In this document: piece by piece, positions 240-64,000 of the stretch
Position numbering within the stretch: position 1 is the stretch's first letter
Layout of the letters: each line of letters begins with the position of its first letter
Source: Eledone cirrhosa
Lineage: Eukaryota
Assembly (NCBI GenBank): GCA_964016885.1
Contig: OZ024741.1
Location: 364,932,001 to 364,996,000 of the forward strand
Direction: 5' to 3'
Length of the DNA stretch: 64,000 bases
The notes under the pieces: model-generated
Databases searched by the model: none
The model's input: only the letters and a program-made list of their open reading frames with translations
Told to the model about the DNA's origin: nothing
Translations under genes and position numbers: made by a program

Positions 240-990
240 ATTAAATAAATGGAAACTATATTTATAAAACCATATTTATTTCGTTATATATATTTCAGGG
301 ATATCATATTAACAATATGTTATGCCATCTTCAGACAAAATACAATATAAACAGTCTTATAAATAAATAAATAGATACGACATACCTTTCAATCACCTTG
401 CATTTGGGAGGTTGATTTGGTAGTAAAAAATATTGTGGACATCTCTCTTTACATTAATACTAGAGCTAAATAAATAAATAAATAAATAAATAAATGTATC
501 AACCGATACTCAACTTCCAAATTTCTCTATCTATCTCTTTCTTTTTTCCTCTCTCTATATATATTTCTCTCTGTTTCTTTACATGAAGTTCTTCTCTTTA
601 TCTATCTTTCTATATCCCTCTATTTAGTCACATGCATTTCTTCTTTTTCTTCGTTTCTCTTTCTTTCTCTCTTTATCTCTTTCTTTTTACAACTATCCAC
701 AATATTTTTTACTACCAAATCAACCTCCCAAATGCAAGGAGATTGAAAGGTATGTCGTATCTATTTATTTATTTATAAGACTGTTTATATTGTATTTTGT
801 CTGAAGATGGCATAACATATTGTTAATATGATATCCCTGAAATATATATAACGAAATAAATATGGTTTTATAAATATAGTTTCCATTTATTTAATATCAT
901 AAATATACTCCAAATACTTGTTGAGTGCTTTTATATCAGTTATAAATATTTACTCGTTGTTAACCCAACAATTTAAATATAACTTTCCAT
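234..990. mobile_element. Penelope-like pseudo-LTR relic with ~205 bp inverted repeats (234-439 / 696-901), flanked by (TA)n
   Basis: Near-perfect inverted arms, each carrying a hammerhead motif; an inverted pLTR arrangement is typical of PLEs. Confidence 0.7.
794..857 (+). ncRNA. Type I hammerhead ribozyme motif (mirror copy at ~278-341, -)
   Basis: attttgt-CTGAAGA-stem II (catatt/aatatg)-GAAA-tatata-TA-acgaaat; stem I attttgt/acgaaat pairs. Confidence 0.7.
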
Positions 991-2469: not shown

Positions 2470-2512
2470 ACGATGAACTAGTTTCTAGCTTATTAGCTGT
2501 CATCAGTATCGT
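2470..2512 (-). ncRNA. Minimal type I hammerhead ribozyme, copy 1
   Basis: acgata-CTGATGA-cagctaataagcta-GAAA-ctag-TT-catcgt; one stem I mismatch next to the core. Confidence 0.75.
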
Positions 2513-2897
2513 ATACCTTCCTGTCAGTCGATTGAATGTTTGAAAGTATATACTTTCCTTATGCATATTAACGGCTGAGCAGCCTAATTTGCATATCGAG
2601 TGAGTTAGTTGGCCGGGTGTACTGAAAACGATAAATGGAAAAAATGAAATTTCATTTCTCACTCTTAGTACGGCTGATACTTAAATATAAGTATGTATAC
2701 GTACGTACATATATGTATACAGACGTACACTAGTATGTATATACATACATGCACACATATATATATATGTATGTGTACGTATGGGTTTACCGAACATTAT
2801 TATAATACTCGGTTTGTTTGGAAACAAACATCCCGAATTAGTAGCCGTACAGTGTTCGGCAACCATCGTTGCCCTTTTGTTCAACACTGACTAAGGA

Positions 2898-2940
2898 ACG
2901 ATGAACTAGTTTCTAGCTTATTAGCTGTCATCAGCATCGT
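2898..2940 (-). ncRNA. Minimal type I hammerhead ribozyme, copy 2
   Basis: acgatg-CTGATGA-cAGCTaataAGCTa-GAAA-ctag-TT-catcgt; perfect 6 bp stem I; palindromic stem III AACTAGTT. Confidence 0.85.
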
Positions 2941-3046
2941 AACCTTCCTGTCAGTCGATTGAACGTTTGAAAGTATATACTTTCCTTATGCACATCGTTC
3001 CTTAGTCAGTGTTGAACAAAAGGGCAACGATGGTTGCCGAACACTG

Positions 3047-3720: not shown

Positions 3721-4429
3721 TATATTATTTAGAAAACGTAAGAGAAACATAAGCAGAAGGACATTTCCCACTCACCGGCTGTCTTCTGTGGATCACTGAT
3801 GTTTCCAACGCAATGAAGACATCTCACCACAGTACTTTGGTAACTATCCGGGGGAAAAAACAAAAAAACAAAACAAAAACAAAACAGAGACGATAACGAC
3901 GAGAACTACAAAAAAAAAGAAGAAAACACAAAGGAGAAAAACACCGACTGAGAAGGGAAAAACACGAAACAGCAGTACATGTAAGTTGCAGTAACCGGAG
4001 AGAGAGAGAGGGTGAGAGAGAGAGAGAGAATATAATGCAGAGACCGAACATAAGTCCTGACTAACAGCACGAGGGAGAGAGAGAAAATCGACGTCTGATC
4101 ATAGCGAGAACAGGAGCAAAAAGGAAGCGACGAAGGAAAACAGAAGTAAGTGGGAGGGGGATTGGTAAGGGAGCAGAGAGAGGGGGAGAAAGGAGTTAGA
4201 TGGTGAGAGAAAAAGAGAATGGTTCTTTGTTTTTTTTCCCGGATAGCTAGCCCTCTTAGTTATCAACGCACTGTGGTGAGATGTAATGTCTTTAATGTGT
4301 CCGAAACATCAATAATCCATAGAAGACAGCTGATGAGTGTGAATTGTCCTGGTGTTTATGTTCGTGTTTCTCTTAGTTTTTCTAAATAATATATATTAGT
4401 TATCACACAGCGCCTTTGTCACTTTTTAA

Positions 4430-5445: not shown

Positions 5446-6121
5446 TATTCAGTGGTGACAGTCAAGTTTGCAATTTTCATCGGCTGTTTTCTGTGGATCG
5501 ATCACTGATGTTTCGAACGCAATAAAGACAGTACATCTCACCACAGTACTTTGGTAACTATCCGGGGAAAAAACAAAAAAAAACAAAACAAAAACAAAAC
5601 AGAGACGATAACGACGAGAACTACAAAAAAAAAAGAAAACTCAAAGGAGAAAAACACCGACTGAGAAGGGAAAAACACGAAACAGCAGTACATGTATGTT
5701 GCAGTAACCGGAGAGAGAGAGAGGGTGAGAGAGAATATAATGCAGAGACCGAACATAAGTCCTGACTAACAGCACGAGGGAGAGAGAGAAAATCGACGTC
5801 TGATCATAGCGAGAACAGGAGCAAAAAGGAAGAGACGAAGGAAAACAGAAGTGAGTGGGAGGGGGATTGGTAAGGGAACAGACAGAGGGGGAGAAAGGAG
5901 ATAGATGGTGAGAGAAAAAGAGAATGGTTCTTTGTTTTTTTTTCTAAATAATATTTATTAGTTATCACACGGCCCCTTTGTCACTTTTTAACTCATATAT
6001 ATATATTAATAAAAGGAATTCCAACTTTGTCTGATTTACTCGTTTTATTTACAATCCTTTAAAATTTATAATGGTATTAGAATGAAATAGTATGGTAGAA
6101 TATTAAATGTTAAGTGTTAAT

Positions 6122-22239: not shown

Positions 22240-22327
<88 letters not shown>

Positions 22328-22364
22328 AAAATAAAAAGTTACGGGCGAAAGAGGGTAATATCCA

Positions 22365-22429
22365 TCATCAGTTGTCTGCTAGGAATCATAGATATTTCTT
22401 TGCGTTAGAGACAATATACCTCAACCTAG
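22365..22429 (-). ncRNA. Divergent copy of the candidate pseudoknotted hammerhead
   Basis: ctaggt-tga-GGTA-TA-TTGTCT-ctaacgcaaa-GAAA-TATC-tat-gat-tcctag-c-AGACAA-CTGATGA. Confidence 0.6.
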
Positions 22430-22718
22430 TGCGATCAATCACTAAAATAAGTTATTGGGATAAAAAAGGAGGGGGGGGGGGGTAAAAACGTAAACAGACA
22501 CGAAAAGTGTGGCAACGTAAAGATATATATATAAATATATTTATATATATACATCCAAAATCTAAAATAGAAATGGCTTCTACAGGACTAATCCTCATTT
22601 GAATGTAATAGTTCTAGTTCTGTAGAAGCCATTTATATATTACATTTTATATATTTCCTACTAATGTATTGAGTACCTTATTTACTGTGGTTACCACCGA
22701 TTGAACCCGGCACTGACG

Positions 22719-25040: not shown

Positions 25041-28000
25041 TGATCGAGTATCGAAAAATCGGCGCACGAGTTCACGATAAACAAAATTCGAAATGAGCGG
25101 CAGAGGGCTCAATAATTCAGATGAATCAGAGCTATAACTATCGTTAAAATACCGTCACACATAGAACAAGTCTAAAATCAACCATACGATAAAAAATCGA
25201 TAATAGAAGATTCGGGACAATCAGATAAAAAATATCAATAAATCAATAAATCAATAATTTAAATGAATGTAAAATCATACCCGGACCCACTAGAAAGGTG
25301 TTAAATCTAGCTTCTTGGGTTTCTGTAAATCCTTAGACTGTACTCTATCAGCTCACATATAAATATATAAGACTTCTGGAATAAGCGGACTGGAAATTTA
25401 CTTCATCAACGAGCTTCGTCCTAGCGGATAAGAGGCTAACTACAAGCAAAATACGCACATGGAATCCGGCAAGGGAGATAACCTCTACATCCGCGAAAAC
25501 TATTCGAGGAAATGTGGAAATACACATATCGAATAAAAGTGCTCAATAGACATGTTAAAATAAAACAGGAGCTATTCATCACTCAATAGAATCGACAAAA
25601 AATGAGCAATAAAATTAACTGGTGGATAGCTATGTCCAGAGCTAAAAATATTAGAATGATCGAGTATCGAAAAATCGGCGCACGAGTTCACGATAAACAA
25701 AATTCGAAATGAGCGGCAGAGGGCTCAATAATTCAGATGAATCAGAGCTATAACTATCGTTAAAATACCGTCACACATAAAACAAGTCTAAAATCAACCA
25801 TACGATAAAAAAATCGATAATAGAAGATTCGGGACAATCAGATAAAAAATATCAATAAATCAATAAATCAATAATTTAAATGAATGTAAAATCATACCCG
25901 GACCCACTAGAAAGGTGTTAAATCTAGCTTCTTGGGTTTCTGTAAATCCTTAGACTGTACTCTATCAGCTCACATATAAATATATAAGACTTCTGGAATA
26001 AGCGGACTGGAAATTTACTTCATCAACGAGCTTCGTCCTAGCGGATAAGAGGCTAACTACAAGCAAAATACGCACATGGAATCCGGCAAGGGAGATAACC
26101 TCTACATCCGCGAAAACTATTCGAGGAAATGTGGAAATACACATATCGAATAAAAGTGCTCAATAGACATGTTAAAATAAAACAGGAGCTATTCATCACT
26201 CAATAGAATCGACAAAAAATGAGCAATAAAATTAACTGGTGGATAGCTATGTCCAGAGCTAAAAATATTAGAATGATCGAGTATCGAAAAATCGGCGCAC
26301 GAGTTCACGATAAACAAAATTCGAAATGAGCGGCAGAGGGCTCAATAATTCAGATGAATCAGAGCTATAACTATCGTTAAAATACCGTCACACATTGAAC
26401 AAGTCTAAAATCAACCATACGATAAAAAAATCGATAATAGAAGATTCGGGACAATCAGATAAAAAATATCAATAAATCAATAAATCAATAATTTAAATGA
26501 ATGTAAAATCATACCCGGACCCACTAGAAAGGTGTTAAATCTAGCTTCTTGGGTTTCTGTAAATCCTTAGACTGTACTCTATCAGCTCACATATAAATAT
26601 ATAAGACTTCTGGAATAAGCGGACTGGAAATTTACTTCATCAACGAGCTTCGTCCTAGCGGATAAGAGGCTAACTACAAGCAAAATACGCACATGGAATC
26701 CGGCAAGGGAGATAACCTCTACATCCGCGAAAACTATTCGAGGAAATGTGGAAATACACATATCGAATAAAAGTGCTCAATAGACATGTTAAAATAAAAC
26801 AGGAGCTATTCATCACTCAATAGAATCGACAAAAAATGAGCAATAAAATTAACTGGTGGATAGCTATGTCCAGAGCTAAAAATATTAGAATGATCGAGTA
26901 TCGAAAAATCGGCGCACGAGTTCACGATAAACAAAATTCGAAATGAGCGGCAGAGGGCTCAATAATTCAGATGAATCAGAGCTATAACTATCGTTAAAAT
27001 ACCGTCACACATAAAACAAGTCTAAAATCAACCATACGATAAAAAAATCGATAATAGAAGATTCGGGACAATCAGATAAAAAATATCAATAAATCAATAA
27101 ATCAATAATTTAAATGAATGTAAAATCATACCCGGACCCATTAGAAAGGTGTTAAATCTAGCTTCTTGGGTTTCTGTAAATCCTTAGACTGTACTCTATC
27201 AGCTCACATATAAATATATAAGACTTCTGGAATAAGCGGACTGGAAATTTACTTCATCAACGAGCTTCGTCCTAGCGGATAAGAGGCTAACTACAAGCAA
27301 AATACGCACATGGAATCCGGCAAGGGAGATAACCTCTACATCCGCGAAAACTATTCGAGGAAATGTGGAAATACACATATCGAATAAAAGTGCTCAATAG
27401 ACATGTTAAAATAAAACAGGAGCTATTCATCACTCAATAGAATCGACAAAAAATGAGCAATAAAATTAACTGGTGGATAGCTATGTCCAGAGCTAAAAAT
27501 ATTAGAATGATCGAGTATCGAAAAATCGGCGCACGAGTTCACGATAAACAAAATTCGAAATGAGCGGCAGAGGGCTCAATAATTCAGATGAATCAGAGCT
27601 ATAACTATCGTTAAAATACCGTCACACATTGAACAAGTCTAAAATCAACCATACGATAAAAAAATCGATAATAGAAGATTCGGGACAATCAGATAAAAAA
27701 TATCAATAAATCAATAAATCAATAATTTAAATGAATGTAAAATCATACCCGGACCCACTAGAAAGGTGTTAAATCTAGCTTCTTGGGTTTCTGTAAATCC
27801 TTAGACTGTACTCTATCAGCTCACATATAAATATATAAGACTTCTGGAATAAGCGGACTGGAAATTTACTTCATCAACGAGCTTCGTCCTAGCGGATAAG
27901 AGGCTAACTACAAGCAAAATACGCACATGGAATCCGGCAAGGGAGATAACCTCTACATCCGCGAAAACTATTCGAGGAAATGTGGAAATACACATATCGA

Positions 28001-30406
28001 ATAAAAGTGCTCAATAGACATGTTAAAATAAAACAGGAGCTATTCATCACTCAATAGAATCGACAAAAAATGAGCAATAAAATTAACTGGTGGATAGCTA
28101 TGTCCAGAGCTAAAAATATTAGAATGATCGAGTATCGAAAAATCGGCGCACGAGTTCACGATAAACAAAATTCGAAATGAGCGGCAGAGGGCTCAATAAT
28201 TCAGATGAATCAGAGCTATAACTATCGTTAAAATACCGTCACACATAAAACAAGTCTAAAATCAACCATACGATAAAAAAATCGATAATAGAAGATTCGG
28301 GACAATCAGATAAAAAATATCAATAAATCAATAAATCAATAATTTAAATGAATGTAAAATCATACCCGGACCCACTAGAAAGGTGTTAAATCTAGCTTCT
28401 TGGGTTTCTGTAAATCCTTAGACTGTACTCTATCAGCTCACATATAAATATATAAGACTTCTGGAATAAGCGGACTGGAAATTTACTTCATCAACGAGCT
28501 TCGTCCTAGCGGATAAGAGGCTAACTACAAGCAAAATACGCACATGGAATCCGGCAAGGGAGATAACCTCTACATCCGCGAAAACTATTCGAGGAAATGT
28601 GGAAATACACATATCGAATAAAAGTGCTCAATAGACATGTTAAAATAAAACAGGAGCTATTCATCACTCAATAGAATCGACAAAAAATGAGCAATAAAAT
28701 TAACTGGTGGATAGCTATGTCCAGAGCTAAAAATATTAGAATGATCGAGTATCGAAAAATCGGCGCACGAGTTCACGATAAACAAAATTCGAAATGAGCG
28801 GCAGAGGGCTCAATAATTCAGATGAATCAGAGCTATAACTATCGTTAAAATACCGTCACACATTGAACAAGTCTAAAATCAACCATACGATAAAAAAATC
28901 GATAATAGAAGATTCGGGACAATCAGATAAAAAATATCAATAAATCAATAAATCAATAATTTAAATGAATGTAAAATCATACCCGGACCCACTAGAAAGG
29001 TGTTAAATCTAGCTTCTTGGGTTTCTGTAAATCCTTAGACTGTACTCTATCAGCTCACATATAAATATATAAGACTTCTGGAATAAGCGGACTGGAAATT
29101 TACTTCATCAACGAGCTTCGTCCTAGCGGATAAGAGGCTAACTACAAGCAAAATACGCACATGGAATCCGGCAAGGGAGATAACCTCTACATCCGCGAAA
29201 ACTATTCGAGGAAATGTGGAAATACACATATCGAATAAAAGTGCTCAATAGACATGTTAAAATAAAACAGGAGCTATTCATCACTCAATAGAATCGACAA
29301 AAAATGAGCAATAAAATTAACTGGTGGATAGCTATGTCCAGAGCTAAAAATATTAGAATGATCGAGTATCGAAAAATCGGCGCACGAGTTCACGATAAAC
29401 AAAATTCGAAATGAGCGGCAGAGGGCTCAATAATTCAGATGAATCAGAGCTATAACTATCGTTAAAATACCGTCACACATAAAACAAGTCTAAAATCAAC
29501 CATACGATAAAAAAATCGATAATAGAAGATTCGGGACAATCAGATAAAAAATATCAATAAATCAATAAATCAATAATTTAAATGAATGTAAAATCATACC
29601 CGGACCCATTAGAAAGGTGTTAAATCTAGCTTCTTGGGTTTCTGTAAATCCTTAGACTGTACTCTATCAGCTCACATATAAATATATAAGACTTCTGGAA
29701 TAAGCGGACTGGAAATTTACTTCATCAACGAGCTTCGTCCTAGCGGATAAGAGGCTAACTACAAGCAAAATACGCACATGGAATCCGGCAAGGGAGATAA
29801 CCTCTACATCCGCGAAAACTATTCGAGGAAATGTGGAAATACACATATCGAATAAAAGTGCTCAATAGACATGTTAAAATAAAACAGGAGCTATTCATCA
29901 CTCAATAGAATCGACAAAAAATGAGCAATAAAATTAACTGGTGGATAGCTATGTCCAGAGCTAAAAATATTAGAATGATCGAGTATCGAAAAATCGGCGC
30001 ACGAGTTCACGATAAACAAAATTCGAAATGAGCGGCAGAGGGCTCAATAATTCAGATGAATCAGAGCTATAACTATCGTTAAAATACCGTCACACATAAA
30101 ACAAGTCTAAAATTAACCATACGATAAAAAAATCGATAATAGAAGATTCGGGACAATCAGATAAAAAATATCAATAAATCAATAAATCAATAATTTAAAT
30201 GAATGTAAAATCATACCCGGACCCACTAGAAAGGTGTTAAATCTAGCTTTTTGGGTTTCTGTAAATCCTTAGACTGTACTCTATCAGCTCACATATAAAT
30301 ATATAAGACTTCTGGAATAAGAGGACTGGAAATTTACTTCATCAACGAGCTTCGTCCTAGCGGATAAGAGGCTAACTACAAGCAAAATACGCACATGGAA
30401 TCCGGC
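25033..30406. repeat. Tandem array, 8.7 copies of a 617 bp unit
   Basis: Unit starts at 25033, 25649, 26266, 26883, 27500, 28117, 28734, 29351, 29968; copies differ at only a few sites. Confidence 0.98.
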
Positions 30407-30725
30407 GTTGACTTGTTCTTCTTTTTGGTAAATATCATCTTTGTTAAGAGAGTGGGACTGGCTTTGTGCAGTGCCTTTGCTCACTATAAAAGCTTCACGG
30501 CACAGGCATTGCTTTATATCTGGAGATCTCTCTGCACTTGTCGTCACATGGTACCATGGGCCCAGCACTATGTGTCAATAATTGTCACAAGTGTAGTGTT
30601 CGTACCAGAGTTTTCAAGTCACTGGCTGGACTAAAAAGGCACACTCGTTCAGCGCATCGGTAGGGGGTTCTCCTACATGGATATAAAGTAGTGGCCCTAC
30701 TCGAAAACGAGTTGGCAGCCACCAT
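30407..30725 (+). mobile_element. RTE-like 3' end fused directly to the array, followed by (TATG)n
   Basis: Near-identical to 35652-35965. Confidence 0.8.
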
Positions 30726-31120
30726 GTATGTATGTATGTATGTATGTATGTATGTTTGTATGTATGTATGTATGTTTGTGTATGTATGTATTATGTAATT
30801 ATGTATGTATGTATGGATGGATGTGTGTGTGTATGTGTGTGTATGAATATATGTATGTATGTAACTATGAATGTATGTTTGTATGTATATATATAATTAT
30901 GTATGTATGTATGTTTGTATGTATGTGTATGTATGTATTATGTAATTATGTATATATGGATGCGCGTGTGTATGTATGTGTGTATGTATGTATGTATGTA
31001 TGTATGTATGTATGTATGTATGTATGTATGTATGTATGTGTGTATGTATATATGTGTATGTATGTGTGTGTGTATGAATATAAGTATGTATATATGTGTG
31101 TATGTATGTGTGTATATATG

Positions 31121-34100
31121 TTATCTCTTTCTCTTAATTTCGAGTATATTTTTTTGACCGGCCACCTTCCTGGCGGCAAGGTTGTAAAAGAAAAGAAATT
31201 GTCATCCCTTGAATCGCAAGAATGTTTTGCAAATTTTGACGGTGCCAGCTATCGCAGCCATTTGTAGACTATGAATTAGGGAGCTGCGCTTTTTGTCCGC
31301 AAGTTCAGTCATACTTTGGTCCAAGCGGGTTGGTATATAACGCGTAGCTCCAATAATGATGGGTATGAAGTTAAAGGTGTATCTTGGATACTGGATTTGT
31401 AAACTCCTCATCAATGGTCCGTAGATGTCCTCCTTCTCCTGTATTTTTCTGACAACGTTTACATCAAGTGGGAAATCTGATCTCCACAACAGAACACGTT
31501 TTCAATGTGTGGTCCCAAACAACAATATCAGGCCGGTTGTGCTTTAATTTGGTGGCAGTTTATATTTTAAGGTTCCACCAGTATTCCTTAGTGTCATCTG
31601 TCTCAATATATTCTTCCTCGTTTGTTGTTAATTTTGTTTTCCGAAGTGCGTTCCCGATGGTTCTAGCTATCCCATCGTCTCTCATGGGGAAGTAGTAGCG
31701 AGATGACATTCTTTCGCAGCTGGCAACAATGTGGCTTACATCCTCGATCTTTGTTTTATATAGCCTACACTTATTCTCAGCTGCTGGCTCTCCCCATTTG
31801 TGCAGCATATATTTGGTAGGGAGTTCTTGTTCCTGTATTGCATAGAGATATCCCTCAAGGTGTGATGTCATAAACTCGTCGGAACTCCATGCCAGGCTTT
31901 TTGAGTGGTTTATTCCCTCTATGGTCTGTGTTTTACGTCTCAAGTATCCATGCACAACTTTTTCTGTAAATTGGTCAATTTTTTCATCTTGTTTGAACAT
32001 TGAATAGGATCTTCCGATTTCTCTGAGTGAGAGATTTATATCAGGCTTTATTCCATATCTCTCCTCCAGATCAGTCGCTATTCTAATGATTTTTGTTTTC
32101 ATGCTCATAAACCTGGGCAAGATGGTTGCCAACCTTTTTCCTCTGTTGAAGGTGTTGCTTCAGTGTTACTATCCGGGTCTCATATGTTGTTAATATGGAT
32201 TTTAGACCCCGGCCATCTTCCTTGCGTGAGAAGTATAGCCTATCCACATCACCATTTATGTTAAAGTTCCCAGTAACACTGAGAAGTTTGCGAGTTCTAA
32301 CATCCATCTCACTTAGTTCTTGCAATGACCAGTTCAGCAGGCCAAATGTTGGCGTTAGAATTGGCACAGCATAAGTATTGTGGGCAATGTATTTGTTGTA
32401 CGCTGACAATTCTAATGACCATATTTTCTTTACTCTTCTGAGGTATTCAGTTCTGGTTCTCTCCTTATTTATGGGTCCATCATATCTGACATTCTCATCC
32501 TGTCCAAGATATCTGTAGTTGTCACCTGACTGTAGAGGTTGTATTGTCAGGCCGTTCATCACTAGATTTCTAGAGGAGAGCACAGCTCTTCCACGTTTTA
32601 CTGCCAAATATGCACACTTGGACTCACCAAATTTCATTTTGATGTCTGTTGAAAATTGTGTAATGAGGTCCAATTGTTTCTTGATGTCATTGATATTTGG
32701 CCCATACAACTTCAGGTCATCAACAAAGAAAAGATGGGAGATACTTCTGGACCCACGTCTTTGTCCACCTTGTTTCCTGAGTAGGTAAGATAGTGGATTT
32801 AGTGAGAGAACGGAGAGTAGCACTGACAAGCTATCATCCTGAAAGATGCCCTTCTGGTAATGTATCTTATCAGTCTTAACTTGCTCCTTCTCATGTCTAA
32901 GGATCAAACTGGTGTACCAGTTCTTGGTCAGGCGTTCAACAGCAGCTACCAATGGTTGTGGGACTTTGGCTAACTGTAAAGCCTTAATAATCCACCCATG
33001 AGGTACACTATCAAATGCTTTTTGATAGTCCAGCCACACCACAGTCATGTTTCTGCGATTCTTTGTTGTTTTTTCCTGAATCATTTTATTAGTTAGTAGG
33101 TGATCTATGCAACCCCACACCTCCCTATTTCCACCAGCTTGCCCAGGTGTTATGATGTTGTTGGTAGCACAGTGATCCTGTAAGAACAGGTTAAGGCACA
33201 TAGTATATAATTTATACATGATGTTTTGGCAGGCTATTGGGCGGTAATTTTAGCAAGGGTGGTTTGGCTATTTTGGGGAATGAGGAGAGTAGTGGCAGTT
33301 GATAACCATCTCGGCAGTTCTTGTGTGCCTTTAATGGTTTCTGTAAACAGCCGTATGAGATCTTGCCGATAGAAAGTGAAATTCTTCAACCAGTATCCTG
33401 TAATGACGTCTGGGCCTGGTGATTTCCTATTCGACATTTTCTGTAGAGCTGTTTCCAGTATGTCATATTGTTTTTTCTGGACATGTTGGCAGTAGTCCTG
33501 TTCCAGTTCTTTTAGCCAATTAGTTTGTCTGTTGAATCCGTCATCTGTTTCCCATACAGGTCTCCAGTAGCTCTCAACCTGTTCTTTTGAAGGGGTGTCA
33601 TTTACAGGGATTGAGCTTTTGCCACCGAAGCTGCGATAAACTGATTTAGGATCTCTGGCAAACAATGTATTTAGCACTTGTCGTTTATGTGTTGTTGACT
33701 TATATTTTAGTATTTCTGTTGTAGCAGTGAGCTGTTGTTTCAACTGGTGTAATTTGGAGTTCAAAGTTTTAAATTTTGTATCTCCAAATCGTCTCTCTAA
33801 CTTTTCTTTTAGGTCTTCCTGGTGTCGTGTGAAGTTGCTCTCTATGTTGCATTTCATAACGACTGCGATGTATGAGATACTTCGTCTCAGGGACAAAACT
33901 TTTGCTTTTTAAATTTCGCATCCACGCTGGTTCAGGCTTTTTGTTTGTATCTTGATTGCGTGGTTTTAGATGTGTGTTATATGATAGCAATCTGACAGCT
34001 GAAACATATAACAAAATATTAAGCGTTTCAAATGTTGTTTCTACACCTTTAGATAATTGCCAGCTATTTCATTCACCGCTTCCAATTCCAATTTAGTGGG

Positions 34101-45060: not shown

Positions 45061-45062
<2 letters not shown>

Positions 45063-46598
45063 ATTTAGGGCCCTTCTAAATTTGTAGGCTAGTTCGCCTC
45101 TAGGGGTTGTATCGATGAACATTACACTCTGGTATTTATTGCTATCATACCATGAGTTTATTATATTGGCCTTGTTCCTAGTTCATTCAATTCTATTCCA
45201 AAATTTGCTCCTATACAAGGGGCAGGTCCCATTTATGTCATTATTTACCATTTTTTCCCATTTGGTTCTGGCTCCTCTATACACTCTGATTCTATCTCTC
45301 TGATTGTAGCCAGAGAACGGATTTGGTACGGGTGATGAGAAATGTGTTCCGCATGTGCAACCCCGAAGAACTAGAGAGACACATACAACACTTCATCCAC
45401 CGTATGCAGTTCTCTGGCTACAATCAGAGAGATAGAATCAGAGTGTATAGAGGAGCCAGAACGAAATGGGAAAAAATGGTAAATAATGACATAAATGGGA
45501 CCTGCCCCTTGTATAGGAGCAAATTTTGGAATAGAATAGAAAGAACTAGGAACAAGGCCAATAGAATAAACTCATGGTATGATAGCAATAAATACCAGAG
45601 TGTAATGTTCATCGATACAACCCCTAGAGGCGAACTAGCCTACAAATTTAGAAGGGCCCTAAATAAACATAAACTCAATATTAAGATAGTAGAAAGACCA
45701 GGTACCTCCGTAAAAACACTTATTAGCAAGACATACCCGTTCCAAAGACCCTCATGTATAGATAAGAAATGTATAACCTGTAAAATAAGCCCCCATATTA
45801 ACTGTAAAACTAGAAATGTAGTGTATAGCATAAGATGTACTGAAGGACAATGTAGAAGCAAAAATATAGTGTACATAGGTGAGACAGCTCGTAGTATAGG
45901 GGAACGGATAAATGAACATGGGGAGACCTTCAAGATAATAAAGAATCATCTGTACTCTACCAACATGCTAAGGTAGAACACAAGGGTAAATTAGAGAACT
46001 TAGAAATAAAAATAGAATCTACACACAGAAAAGATGCAATGTTTAGACAAATTACAGAGGCAATAAACATAAAAGAATTACAACCAAAATTAAATAGAAA
46101 ATATGAGTGGAACAGCAACATCACAACTTACAATTAAGGACAAAATGAAAACACATACACACATAGAACAAACAACCAACCAATAACATGTAAATAAATA
46201 AACAAATAGATAAATGAACACAAACACACACAGACACCCGGATGTGGCGCATGCGCAAACTGAGCACACAACACACACACAGAAACAAAATGGCGTAGGA
46301 CAGAAGAAAGGAAAGGCACAGAAACAAAGAAAGGAATCCCCAGTCACTGAAGAGGTCACAGAGTGTGTGACGAAAGGACTATGACTATATATAAACAACT
46401 ATCTGGTTGTGGAACCAACCAACCAACCAGATATTTATAAATTTGTAGATTTGTAAATTTATAAATATATAATAAATTGAAGTGAAAGCAACTGGTGCGT
46501 GTGTTTCTTATTGGCAACATGACCCTCCCAAAGTATAACAATATCGGTTTCAACACACGATTTCAGATAAAGAATCTTGCTAAACAAATTCAGAAACG

Positions 46599-46824: not shown

Positions 46825-47617
46825 TTTATATGAATATAAGTATGTATATTTTATGTGTGCATATGTTTTATATATGTATGTATTTTATATATATATATAT
46901 ATTTTTATATATATAGATATTTTATATATATGTATGTTTTATGTGTATATGTGTATTTTATATATATATATATGCTTGTGCGTACACATATATATATACA
47001 CACCTGTCTGGATTTGTGTGTGTAGATGTGTGTGTGTCTGAGGGTGTAGGTGTGAGTGTATGTACAAGCCAACCAACATAAGCCTTTTATTTCTAAATTT
47101 TCTAAACTATCTAAGTATTTGACTCTAACCATTATTTTAAGTATTACCACCCCACATTAATTCCTCAATTTGTATGTGTGAATGTGTGTGTGTGTCTGTG
47201 GATGTGGGTGTGAGTGTACGTGCAAGCCAACCTAAATAAGTCTTTTTATTTGTAAATTTTCTACTCTAACCATAACTTTCAGTAGCACCACTCCACATAA
47301 ATTCCTCAATTTAAGAATAACCTGTAGTATCTATTCCTACTATTAACCTTAATTCAATATATATCTGACCAGGAATGCTTTTTGTGAAAATCAGTCATAT
47401 GGAACTATTGTCATCTTGCCTGACGGTTTGAACTTTACAACACCACCTGCCTCCTTGAGGTCAAATACCAACTCCACTAGCATCTACAAACTGACCAATG
47501 AGAATTAAGACTATTCCCGCTGACAACATTAAATTGTTCCTAAGAAGCTCATATGTCCCAAGGCTCTGATACCATCAGCACTATAAACACGTAGCTGGCA
47601 TATCTAAGAACTGACTA

Positions 47618-47675
47618 ACTGCCTGATGAGGTCATAGCCATTCAATGGCTATCATCGAAATATATATATAGCAGT
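47618..47675 (+). ncRNA. Type I hammerhead ribozyme downstream of a PLE C-terminal relic (..PDGLN at ~47420)
   Basis: actgc-CTGATGA-ggtcATAGCCATtcaATGGCTATcatc-GAAA-tatatata-TA-gcagt. Confidence 0.88.
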
Positions 47676-47806
47676 AAATAAAGGATTACGAGTTCATGCA
47701 ATTGACTTATATTTCGTCAGTATATATATATATATATATATGTATTTGATATATATCTATCCTTATCGAGCCCTCTTTGGATTTTAGTCTTGAAATTTAT
47801 TATTAT

Positions 47807-61248: not shown

Positions 61249-61290
<42 letters not shown>

Positions 61291-62906
61291 GGTGTCGACG
61301 AAATCGAGGCGGTCGGCACCTTACTGGAGGAGTACGAAAAGTTCACAGGGGCTAAGCTGAACCGGGACAAGTCGATCGGTTTGCAACTCGGCACGTGGAG
61401 GGGCAGACCGATGCCCTCCGATAGCGTCGTCGGACGCTGGACGGAGGGCCCGGTGAAGTTGCTCGGGGTCTGGTTCGGACCGGACCTCCAGGTGGAGAAA
61501 AACTGGGCGGAGGTTACGAACAGGGTGTTTGCACTGACCCAGAAGTGGGCCAGTTGCAAACTATCCCTGAAAGGTCGGGCGGAGGTGGCGAACACCTACA
61601 TAGCGTCCGTCATCTACTACCGCCTGACCGTAGTGCCCTGCCCAAGGGAAACCCTCACCAAGATGGAGCGCGCACTCTTCCAATTCCTTTGGAAGAGGCG
61701 GGCTCCTATGGTGAGGAGATCCATCTGCTGTCAACACCCTTCGAAAGGAGGGCTGGGGATGCCGTGGCTAATGATGCGTAAACACGCATTAAGGCTACGG
61801 CACCTCTACGTATTCCTCACCGGACAACCGGTGTGGGCCTCGTTTGTGAGACGAACCTTTCCCAGACTCGTCTCACTCACCGAGCTGCAATCCTGGGTCA
61901 AGCAAAGACCGAGAAAACTGGGCGCCTGGCACACTGAGTGTGCCCAGGCGCTCACCGCCCTCTGGCAGGCGGATCCGGTTATCAGTGGAGACTCCACCGC
62001 AACATTCTATAGAGGGCTGGTACGCAGCAGGTGCGACGACGCCCTCGGAGAAGCCCTAGACATGGAGGAGGACGAACTGGCCAGCCTGTTCGGTAGGACA
62101 TTCAGCCCGGGACCTATGGACAACTTCCAGAAGTCCCTGGCCTGGCAGTGCTACCGAGGGGCTTTACCCGTTCGAGAAAGGCTCTACAGACACGGGCGCC
62201 CGGGTAGGGACCCCGCCAAAAAGATCTGTCCCAGATGCGTGTGCGACGAGGAAACCGTTGCACACGCATTAGTACACTGCTCGGGCGTAGCCGATCTGTG
62301 GGGCTATGTCGAACAACTGCTGTCAAGGGTGGGACCGATCCGGTTGACCACCGAGTCTATTGTAATGATCAAGCCGCCTCCCCCCTTCAAAGATGAAGCA
62401 GAGGCGGTGTTTCTGTGCGTAATAGCCATGGCGAAAGAGGTTGTATGGTGGACGCGTCTGAAAGGACTGAGGTCGGGCACCTTTCTCTCTGGCCAACAAC
62501 TGGTCCGTTTCTTCCGATATCATTTCGGAAGAAGGATCAGGATGGAGAGAGAGGTGCTGCACCCCAGCCGTTTCTATGAAAGATGGGTGAAAGTGGCGAG
62601 AATGGCCCGTGTGAATGGGCCTTCACTCTACATCAGACTATAGGTGAGGAAGATGAAAGACCAAGGGAGCACCCCTTCTCTGTGCTCCTGAGGAGTAGGG
62701 TTGCACACTTTTTTCGGGGGTGTGTGCGACCCCCCAAGGCGCCTCCTCTCTATTCAGGATTTTGTTAAAAATTTTATTTTTTGTTATATCTTATTTTATT
62801 TTTATATTTTGTTATTGCCTTCTCCTTATTGAGGACGCCTTTTTGTGTAAACTCCCCCCTTTGTACTTGTCCCACTTTTGATGCCCTAGTGGCAAATAAA
62901 AGAAAT
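61291..62906 (+). mobile_element. 5'-truncated Tx1/L1-clade retrotransposon; open ORF2 C-terminus to stop at 62643; inserted in (TATC)n
   Basis: LGVWFG, LSLKGRAEV, GGLGMP, CPRC..ETVAHALVHC; aataaa near the 3' end; GC-rich. Confidence 0.93.
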
Positions 62907-62907
62907 A

Positions 62908-63004
<97 letters not shown>

Positions 63005-63005
<1 letters not shown>

Positions 63006-64000
63006 CGCTAGTGAGGAAGGACGAGAACAAGGGGGACGAAATAAGTAACTTCAGGCCCATAACACTGCTAAATACAGAGTTACAGATTTTGGCCAAGGTG
63101 CTAGCAAAGAGGTTGGCGCTTGTCGTGGGCAACCTGGTGGGAGATGCGCAGACATGCGCTATCCCGTCCAGGTCCATCCATGACAACCTCCACCTCATGC
63201 GATACATCATAGAGAGGGTTGGGAACGAACCCGGCTTTGGTGGGGCTCTGATCAACTTGGATCAATCTAAGGCGTTCGATAGGGTCGACCATGGTTACCT
63301 GGATGCGGTGCTAGCGGCGGCAGGCTTCGGACCCGTTTTCAGGGGCTGGATCACTGCTATGCACAGCAGCCGCATCTGCTCTAGGGTCAAGGTGAACGGC
63401 TACCTCTCGGAGCCGTTCAAAATCGCGCGGTCCATCCGACAAGGGTGCCCTCTCTCCTCCCTTCTGTATGTATTGACTCTCGAGCCACTACTGCGGAAGT
63501 TGGAGTTGTTGCAGGGCATCCCTTTGGAACCGGGATTGCGGAAAGCGGTGTCGGCCTACGCCGATGACGTGACAGTAATGGTGTCGACGGCCTCCGAAAT
63601 CGAGGCGGTCGGCACCTTACTGGAGGAGTACGAAAAGTTCACAGGGGCTAAGCTGAACCGGGACAAGTCGATCGGTTTGCAACTCGGCACGTGGAGGGGC
63701 AGACCGATGCCCTCCGATAGCGTCGTCGGACGCTGGACGGAGGGCCCGGTGAAGTTGCTCGGGGTCTGGTTCGGACCGGACCTCCAGGTGGAGAAAAACT
63801 GGGCGGAGGTTACGAACAGAGTGTTTGCACTGACCCAGAAGTGGGCCAGTTGCAAACTATCCCTGAAAGGTCGGGCGGAGGTGGCGAACACCTACATAGC
63901 GTCCGTCATCTACTACCGCCTGACCGTAGTGCCCTGCCCAAGGGAAACCCTCACCAAGATGGAGCGCGCGCTCTTCCAATTCCTTTGGAAGAGGCGGGCT
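63005..64000 (+). mobile_element. Second 5'-truncated Tx1 copy; open RT frame, runs off the window
   Basis: NFRPITLLN, LDQSKAFDRVDH, RQGCPLS, AYADD; nearly identical to the first copy over ~400 bp. Confidence 0.95.

Follow-up and report, generated by a model that had tools for sequence, protein, structure and literature searches.

The window analyzed here is a stretch of 64,000 nucleotides from the 3.0-Gb, microsatellite-rich genome of Eledone cirrhosa. Its minus strand carries, at 22326..22522, a 5'-truncated copy of about 200 bp of a subfamily-B repeat unit, with (TA)n on either side. A hammerhead core lies within this copy at 22359-22462 (-), and its parts follow one another in a non-circular order, from the cleavage site through GAAA to CUGAUGA, which is the order of the type-SGC hammerheads. 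Read 5' to 3' along the minus strand, to which all positions in this and the following paragraph refer, the motif begins with the 5' strand of a closing helix, P0 (UAUCC, 22458..22462, paired with GGAUA at 22359..22363). There follow P0a, a 7-bp hairpin with an 8-nt loop (22436..22457), and the 5' strand of stem II', UCGCA (positions 10.2-10.6, at 22430..22434, partner 22400-22404), which is displaced to the 5' side of the ribozyme. The 5' strand of the outer helix, corresponding to the NC helix of a kink turn (k-turn), occupies 22424..22429 (partner 22379-22384), and the non-bulge strand of the k-turn, U3n G2n A1n, occupies 22421..22423. Block S (22409..22420) comprises the 5' strand of stem III, U16.1, A17, and the 5' strand of stem I, with the predicted scissile bond between 22415 and 22414. 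Block G (22391..22408) contains a 4-nt linker, CUAA, the 3' strand of stem II', A11.1, GAAA, and the 3' strand of stem III; it is followed at 22378..22390 by the bulge strand of the k-turn (3-nt bulge UAU, then G1b A2b U3b) and the 3' strand of the outer helix. Block C (22364..22377) supplies the 3' strand of stem I, the CUGAUGA core, and U10.1.

Every segment of the scrambled hammerhead claimed in the original prediction was found on this strand: stem III as GGUA/UAUC with one G.U pair (22417-20 / 22391-94), U16.1 and A17 (22416 and 22415), stem I as UUGUCU/AGACAA (22409-14 / 22372-77), the outer stem as CUAGG/CCUAG plus one U.U (22425-22429 / 22379-22383), the GA/GA of the k-turn (22421-22 / 22386-87), GAAA (22395-98), CUGAUGA (22365-71), and A11.1 (22399) opposite U10.1 (22364). 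The compensatory changes that it listed are present as well, five of them double-sided and one to G.U, when the window copy is compared with the family-A consensus. Its description of stem II did not survive. The linker said to be conserved at 10 nt, which runs from the 6-bp stem I to GAAA, measures 10 nt in the window copy and 11 nt in family A; it is not a single strand but pairs with the 5' flank as the remainder of stem II, which is not a lone pair but continues with that flank as a nicked helix. Thus the proposed pairings hold, but the structure was incomplete, three helices having been overlooked. The window copy has two breaks relative to its subfamily, one in stem II' at 22401, where the 3' strand reads CGCAA rather than the CGCGA of subfamily B, and one in the hairpin, a mismatch at 22440. 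Selection has most likely acted on the source elements and not on the window copy.

Three copies of the 4271 family could be located in the window, as predicted, all of them in subfamily A: a decayed copy at 4236..4350 (+), with its motif at 4257-4350, in which the k-turn GA and pair 1.1-2.1 are broken; an inverted copy with a damaged core at 3758..3846 (-); and a copy with a CCGAUGA core variant at 5477..5560 (-). The copy described above had been counted as the fourth, but it belongs to a subfamily for which a DNA search of the genome gave 1,427 first-look candidates, of which 40 were scored; the search with the 4271 family gave 321. An Rfam scan of the window returned 111 weak matches, nearly all microsatellite look-alikes, and no match to the hammerhead models. 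The abundance of the motif is better seen with a 34-place pattern for its 3' half, which has 11,346 matches genome-wide versus 7 for the reversed control. When N7 and 3b are freed, the numbers are 18,596 versus 35, and a variant barring the stem I of A and B gives 121 versus 5.

Fourteen subfamily consensuses were drawn from 227 copies, with singletons and clusters of fewer than three copies omitted; 47 of the 227 had been picked by exclusion and were omitted from the consensuses wherever three others existed. The original prediction had been made to depend on the consensus of the window copy's own subfamily, and subfamily B keeps all of the pairings. Among the 22 of its 32 copies that could be parsed, stem III is GAUA/UAUC in 10, GGUA/UACC in 4, and GGUA/UAUC in 3, the last being a G.U intermediate and the form present in the window copy. 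In family A (31 copies, L031-L060) the core reads CUGA in 14, CCGA in 14, CCAA in 2, and CAAA in 1; CpG decay alone (21.5%) is insufficient to explain the split between CUGA and CCGA. Some family A copies have G-C instead of U.U at 3n-3b of the k-turn. Per-copy decay in families A, B, and F amounts to 5.3, 1.4, and 6.0% in the core versus 6.0, 4.5, and 10.7% in the helices, but these rates are set aside as evidence because they are confounded by profile selection and subfamily variation.

The hammerhead core is kept across the consensuses, with CUGA in 13 of 14 (CCGA in family A) and G8A9 and U16.1 in all 14, an invariance that is partly built in for C, D, E, and G, since those copies were fetched by core patterns. 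Variation in the consensuses is limited to the positions that are free in hammerheads, N7 being occupied by U, G, or C and H17 by A or C but in no case by G. Chance matches to the core carry few of the stems; in viral contigs (n=45) they form a mean of 5.6 of 16 stem pairs and a maximum of 9, versus a mean of 15.2 of 16 in genome copies (n=98). A metagenome scan yielded no locus with full stems I and III among the 117 listed.

Around this core the chain takes an unusual path. The nucleotides preceding GAAA pair with the segment immediately 5' of the outer helix and thereby constitute stem II, interrupted by a nick after 10.1. Beyond 10.1 the chain enters P0; the 5' strand of P0 leads into P0a and then, over 0-2 nt, into stem II', so that the closing helix and the hairpin create a four-way junction right after pair 10.1-11.1. 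In all, seven helices are recognized. The pairs of stem II' differ from family to family (AACGCA/UGCGUU in A, UCGC/GCGA in B-D, UUGCA/UGCAA in E1, GUGCA/UGCAC in F), as do those of P0 (UAUCC/GGAUA, GUCC/GGAC, UCCCG/CGGGA). P0 forms 4-5 of its 5 pairs in all 12 families having the hairpin, and P0a forms 7/7 pairs in 11 families and 6/7 in one, being absent in F and H. The linker between stems I and II is 4 nt ending in AA in 14/14. A k-turn signature, a 3-nt bulge with tandem G.A/A.G, links stem III to the outer (I-II interaction) helix, with the GA retained on the bulge side in 14/14 consensuses and on the other side in 13/14. Its letters resemble those of box C/D RNAs (L3=U in 14/14, U.U at 3b.3n in 11/14). 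A box C/D snoRNA was rejected as a reading of the motif, since the CUGAGGA and CUGACGA variants found here break the box C consensus while stem I covaries.

Covariation across the 14 consensuses provides the main evidence for the fold. Anchored on GAAA, stem III is paired in 56/56 cells and stem I in 84/84, and both show a double change at every position. The outer helix is paired in 79/84 cells as parsed and in 82/84 after the register of D2 is corrected by hand for a 1-nt insertion. In stem II, pair 10.1-11.1 is found in 13/14, as G-C, U-A, A-U, or G.U; stem II' is paired in 59/70 cells as parsed, and after the same correction its first four pairs are present in every consensus. When halves were swapped between families, the observed total was reached in 0/20,000 permutations. 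With D2 corrected and the distal II' pair (7/14 paired) excluded, 291 of 294 helix cells are paired despite 89 changes inferred by parsimony (44 plus 45), whereas a tree-aware neutral simulation, in which an equal number of changes was placed independently on the tree, gave 194 +/- 15 and reached the observed value in 0/1,500 runs. The covariation anticipated from a single divergent copy thus extends across subfamilies, as does the selection on structure that it was taken to indicate. Twenty real copies aligned without regard to structure gave a similar picture, with 88.4% of 698 cells paired and a double change in 28 of 35 pairs, versus 26-49% paired for controls with slid partners; on these copies one of five measures, the number of further pair types, was no better than shuffles (188/500). 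RNAalifold, unaided, finds the outer helix and stem III.

It might be argued that an ordinary repeat would show such pairings simply through shared ancestry and the post hoc picking of helices. P0, P0a, and II' were indeed first spotted by eye and tested afterwards, and single-sequence folding is unexceptional: nested folding gives weak z-scores (-0.8 to -1.7), and the minimum-energy fold of the window copy misses the outer helix and stem III. Such unremarkable folding is expected of an RNA in which two helices are pseudoknots. The tree-aware simulation, the slid controls, and the failure of chance core matches to bring the stems with them make an origin by ancestry and selective picking extremely improbable, and we regard it as nearly certain that the fold is real and was selected in the source elements.

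The blocks occur in the order S, G, C from 5' to 3', as in type SGC. In the canonical hammerheads (types I-III), which are related to one another by circular permutation, the cyclic order is the opposite one, and tandem repetition therefore cannot interconvert the two forms. In Eckert et al. 2023 (PMC10085705), type-SGC hammerheads (HRIMA-1 and variants) are reported from metatranscriptomes only and from no genome of a known organism, with cleavage in vitro at 0.007-0.13 per minute; weaker cases are mentioned besides the environmental RNA, and the origin and three-dimensional path of the non-circular permutation are left open. The motif described here shares with those RNAs the S-G-C blocks and the same core letters, and its outer helix, formed by the strand before the 3' strand of stem I and the strand after the 5' strand of stem II, is the topological equivalent of their I-II interaction helix. 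The link between stems I and II is short in both, 3-4 nt here and typically 3 there. Unlike the type-SGC RNAs of that study, this motif is chromosomal, with more than 18,000 matches, and the k-turn connects both strands of its interaction helix to stem III; the words "kink" and "k-turn" have 0 matches in the supplement of PMC10085705. A three- or four-way junction also divides block C after 10.1, an arrangement that those authors assumed to be impossible. Of the 5' strand of stem II only 10.1 follows the core; positions 10.2-10.6 are found at the 5' end, after P0 and P0a. Since block C is interrupted, the motif is better described as a variant of type SGC than as a plain member.

The predicted k-turn has the 3-nt bulge and the succeeding tandem G.A/A.G of standard k-turns such as those of box C/D, U4, and Kt-23, as described in PMC5061560, and subfamily G has the 2n=U variant that the same source gives for Kt-23. 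Its location at the tip of hammerhead stem III sets it apart from the standard examples. A bend at the k-turn could return the arm of stem III to the tip of stem I and so allow the pseudoknotted strand path to close. We infer that the kink solves the distance problem left open by Eckert et al., and it would provide a concrete answer to the question of how the interaction helix reaches stem III. On the other side of the molecule, stem II' may stack on pair 10.1-11.1 and P0 on P0a.

Judged by its sequence, the SGC motif is predicted to self-cleave, and we consider this very likely. Templates that end at the cut, if there are any, should leave 5'-truncated copies concentrated at this point or just 3' of it. 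Patterns for 5' ends in families C-E, with three mismatches demanded before the start and with laxer upstream filters, gave raw genome-wide counts of 70 at 2 nt 3' of the cut, 51 at the cut, 29 at 3 nt 5' of it, and 10 at 5 nt 5' of it. On inspection 13/20, 29/30, 14/21, and 5/10 of these, respectively, were true 5' ends, which corresponds to an estimated ~45, ~49, ~19, and ~5. The genome-wide profile is a step with no spike at a single position (70 at -2 versus 51 at 0). A sharp spike at the cut had been considered and was dropped; a first pass gave 7/196, one of them an artefact of an inverted copy. A set of 156 young copies, selected by their 3' half, has 13 ends within the 17 positions that lead up to the cut, compared with 10 over the 40 positions that follow (p=0.007). 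The step is an indirect sign of cleavage; stalling of reverse transcriptase (RT) in the structure, or TA microhomology, could also yield it. At locus L448 (C1:29084750-29085550), two copies form a head-to-head palindrome whose center is exactly at the predicted cleavage site. Loss of H17 was examined as a possible ligation scar and rejected, being seen in 1/30 copies and in 0/159 others.

One might also suppose that the fold, though derived from a ribozyme and selected, no longer cleaves and serves as a protein-binding or priming signal, for instance as a k-turn for 15.5K/L7Ae or as a loading site for the RT. The box C/D-like letters of the k-turn are compatible with such a role, as are the 3' ends of the repeat, which follow the motif at a short, constant distance. 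Most young copies, moreover, read through an intact site (129/156 run at least 46 nt beyond the predicted cut), and about half of the family A copies carry U4C. It is harder to see why a noncleaving signal would keep all of the catalytic positions and let N7 and H17 vary in the manner of active hammerheads, why stem I, which positions the scissile bond, should pair in 84/84 cells, or why 5' ends should fall off just past the predicted cut. We consider a purely binding or priming function improbable. The self-cleaving reading is preferred, and with good confidence the window copy can be regarded as a decayed genomic copy of an S-G-C hammerhead, likely cleaving itself after NUH, in a repeat that is likely of retrozyme type and copied by a Penelope-like element (PLE).

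The units themselves are non-coding (18 of 90 listed open reading frames were scanned against Pfam, and the units were judged by eye), pyrimidine-rich, and low in GC, and stand head to tail at spacings of 445-637 nt with one ribozyme per unit; arrays at locus L083 contain at least five. No recognizable RT or endonuclease is encoded in them, and whole units follow one another without RT-like sequence. An inverted 5' copy is common beside them, and insertions lie in (TA)n, with (TA)5 within 81 nt of the core in 23 of 27 terminal copies. Tandem and inverted 5'-truncated copies, a tail, and a microsatellite target, that is, the insertion signature of PLEs, are all seen.

In Cervera and de la Pena 2020 (PMC7229834) and in Li et al. 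(bioRxiv 10.64898/2026.07.22.740005), animal non-LTR retrozymes are likewise tandem units a few hundred nucleotides long, non-coding and low in GC, with one ribozyme per unit and PLEs alongside. These elements, however, are there defined and searched for by type I hammerheads only, whereas the units described here carry the SGC form. Lacking both the intact block C of type SGC and the type I ribozyme of animal retrozymes, the motif represents a new variant in a new setting. No earlier report of SGC hammerheads in animal retro-repeats was found in the literature searched, most subscription papers lying outside it. Craig et al. 2021 (PMC8557442) and Frangieh et al. 2024 (PMC11167929) describe for PLEs, with Neptune and Naiad as examples, the same partial tandems, 5' truncation, and adjacent inverted copy, together with a short tail, a microsatellite bias, and internal RT start on AT-rich targets; Naiads, according to the former, prefer (TA)n and are without ribozymes. 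Unlike PLEs, the units here have no recognizable RT or endonuclease. On indirect evidence, we think it probable that the SGC repeat is mobilized by a PLE.

A candidate partner emerged from an RT fragment beside the L211 copy, which led to an RT/GIY-YIG family with 35,097 first-look candidates in the genome. Its open reading frame is similar (score 0.98) to HTH_animal/GIY-YIG clusters of the Atlas and has no match in a Pfam search; by motifs and domain order we assume the family to be Neptune-like. Its pseudo-LTR (pLTR) carries an ordinary type I ribozyme and is homologous to the units only over a nested copy and CT repeats, a point against the preferred reading. Three junctions fuse SGC sequence directly to this element with no TA repeat between them, at L243 (5950-6300), L211 (1900-2200; the same junction as in L099), and L230 (3050-3405), whereas the remaining SGC neighbors of the element are separated from it by TA. 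The L211 junction was the starting point of the partner search. At L243 the type I ribozyme of the element is cut off and continued by the 3' half of the SGC motif. Such junctions are the pattern that template switching would give, and we put the chance that this family is the partner at about even. As to the autonomous PLE partner that the original prediction proposed to identify, the junctions point to this abundant family, but no autonomous element with the SGC ribozyme was found in the one PLE family searched.

That result bears on the further suggestion that the units are not free retrozymes but the pLTRs of an autonomous PLE that itself carries the SGC ribozyme. The tandem and inverted 5'-truncated structure, the short tail, and the (TA)n bias match PLE insertions as described in PMC8557442, and a pLTR origin of animal retrozymes is reported in bioRxiv 10.64898/2026.07.22.740005. 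Behind 42 RT-bearing loci of one PLE family, however, no SGC motif stands in the pLTR position, and whole units stand head to tail without RT-like sequence. A pLTR origin of this kind seems unlikely, although less so than a noncleaving signal.

For the retrozyme-type repeat that we prefer, a reaction cycle can be proposed. Read-through transcripts of tandem units would be cut into monomers, and these might be circularized by the host RtcB or by self-ligation, with about 20 bp clasping both of the cut ends. The reverse transcriptase of a PLE could then start 15-80 nt downstream of the core at a nicked (TA)n. Circles would yield tandem copies, and linear cleaved RNA would yield copies ending at the cut. 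We lean, by a small margin over even odds, toward this account in its entirety: an active hammerhead with two pseudoknots, present in more than 18,000 copies, in which a k-turn closes the strand path and a junction splits stem II, with the ends clasped, the RNA circularizing and riding on a PLE RT, and the truncated copies recording the cut.

The genome of E. cirrhosa offers a chromosomal setting, at very high copy number, for a permutation reported earlier from environmental RNA and a few weaker cases. Its subfamilies, at least 14 in number, amount to a natural mutagenesis series that is open to assay. Because retrozyme surveys with type I descriptors would miss the SGC class, other genomes may hide it.

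Ordinary hammerheads and other repeats are also present. A second PLE-like family with a GIY-YIG end and a Cys linker, seen at L158 (2426-3031, +) and L212, has a minimal type I hammerhead. Within the window, two related type I hammerheads at 2470-2520 (-) and 2898-2948 (-) have a stem III that is a palindrome (CUAG), which is the dimer-type form found in PLE pLTRs, and an inverted pair at 290-340 (-) and 790-850 (+) matches the pLTR ribozyme that accompanies the RT/GIY-YIG element at L244. A further type I hammerhead, at 47615-47680 (+), has a palindromic stem III and a long stem II. LINE-type RT fragments (RVT_1, zf-RVT) occupy 31563-33908 (-) and 61249-64000 (+). An array at 25191-30726 consists of nine 617-bp units, eight of them identical over the 300 nt compared, and is without CUGANGA. 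At 45061-45973, a 258-nt inverted repeat overlaps an unassigned 228-amino-acid frame that is found in L151 as well.
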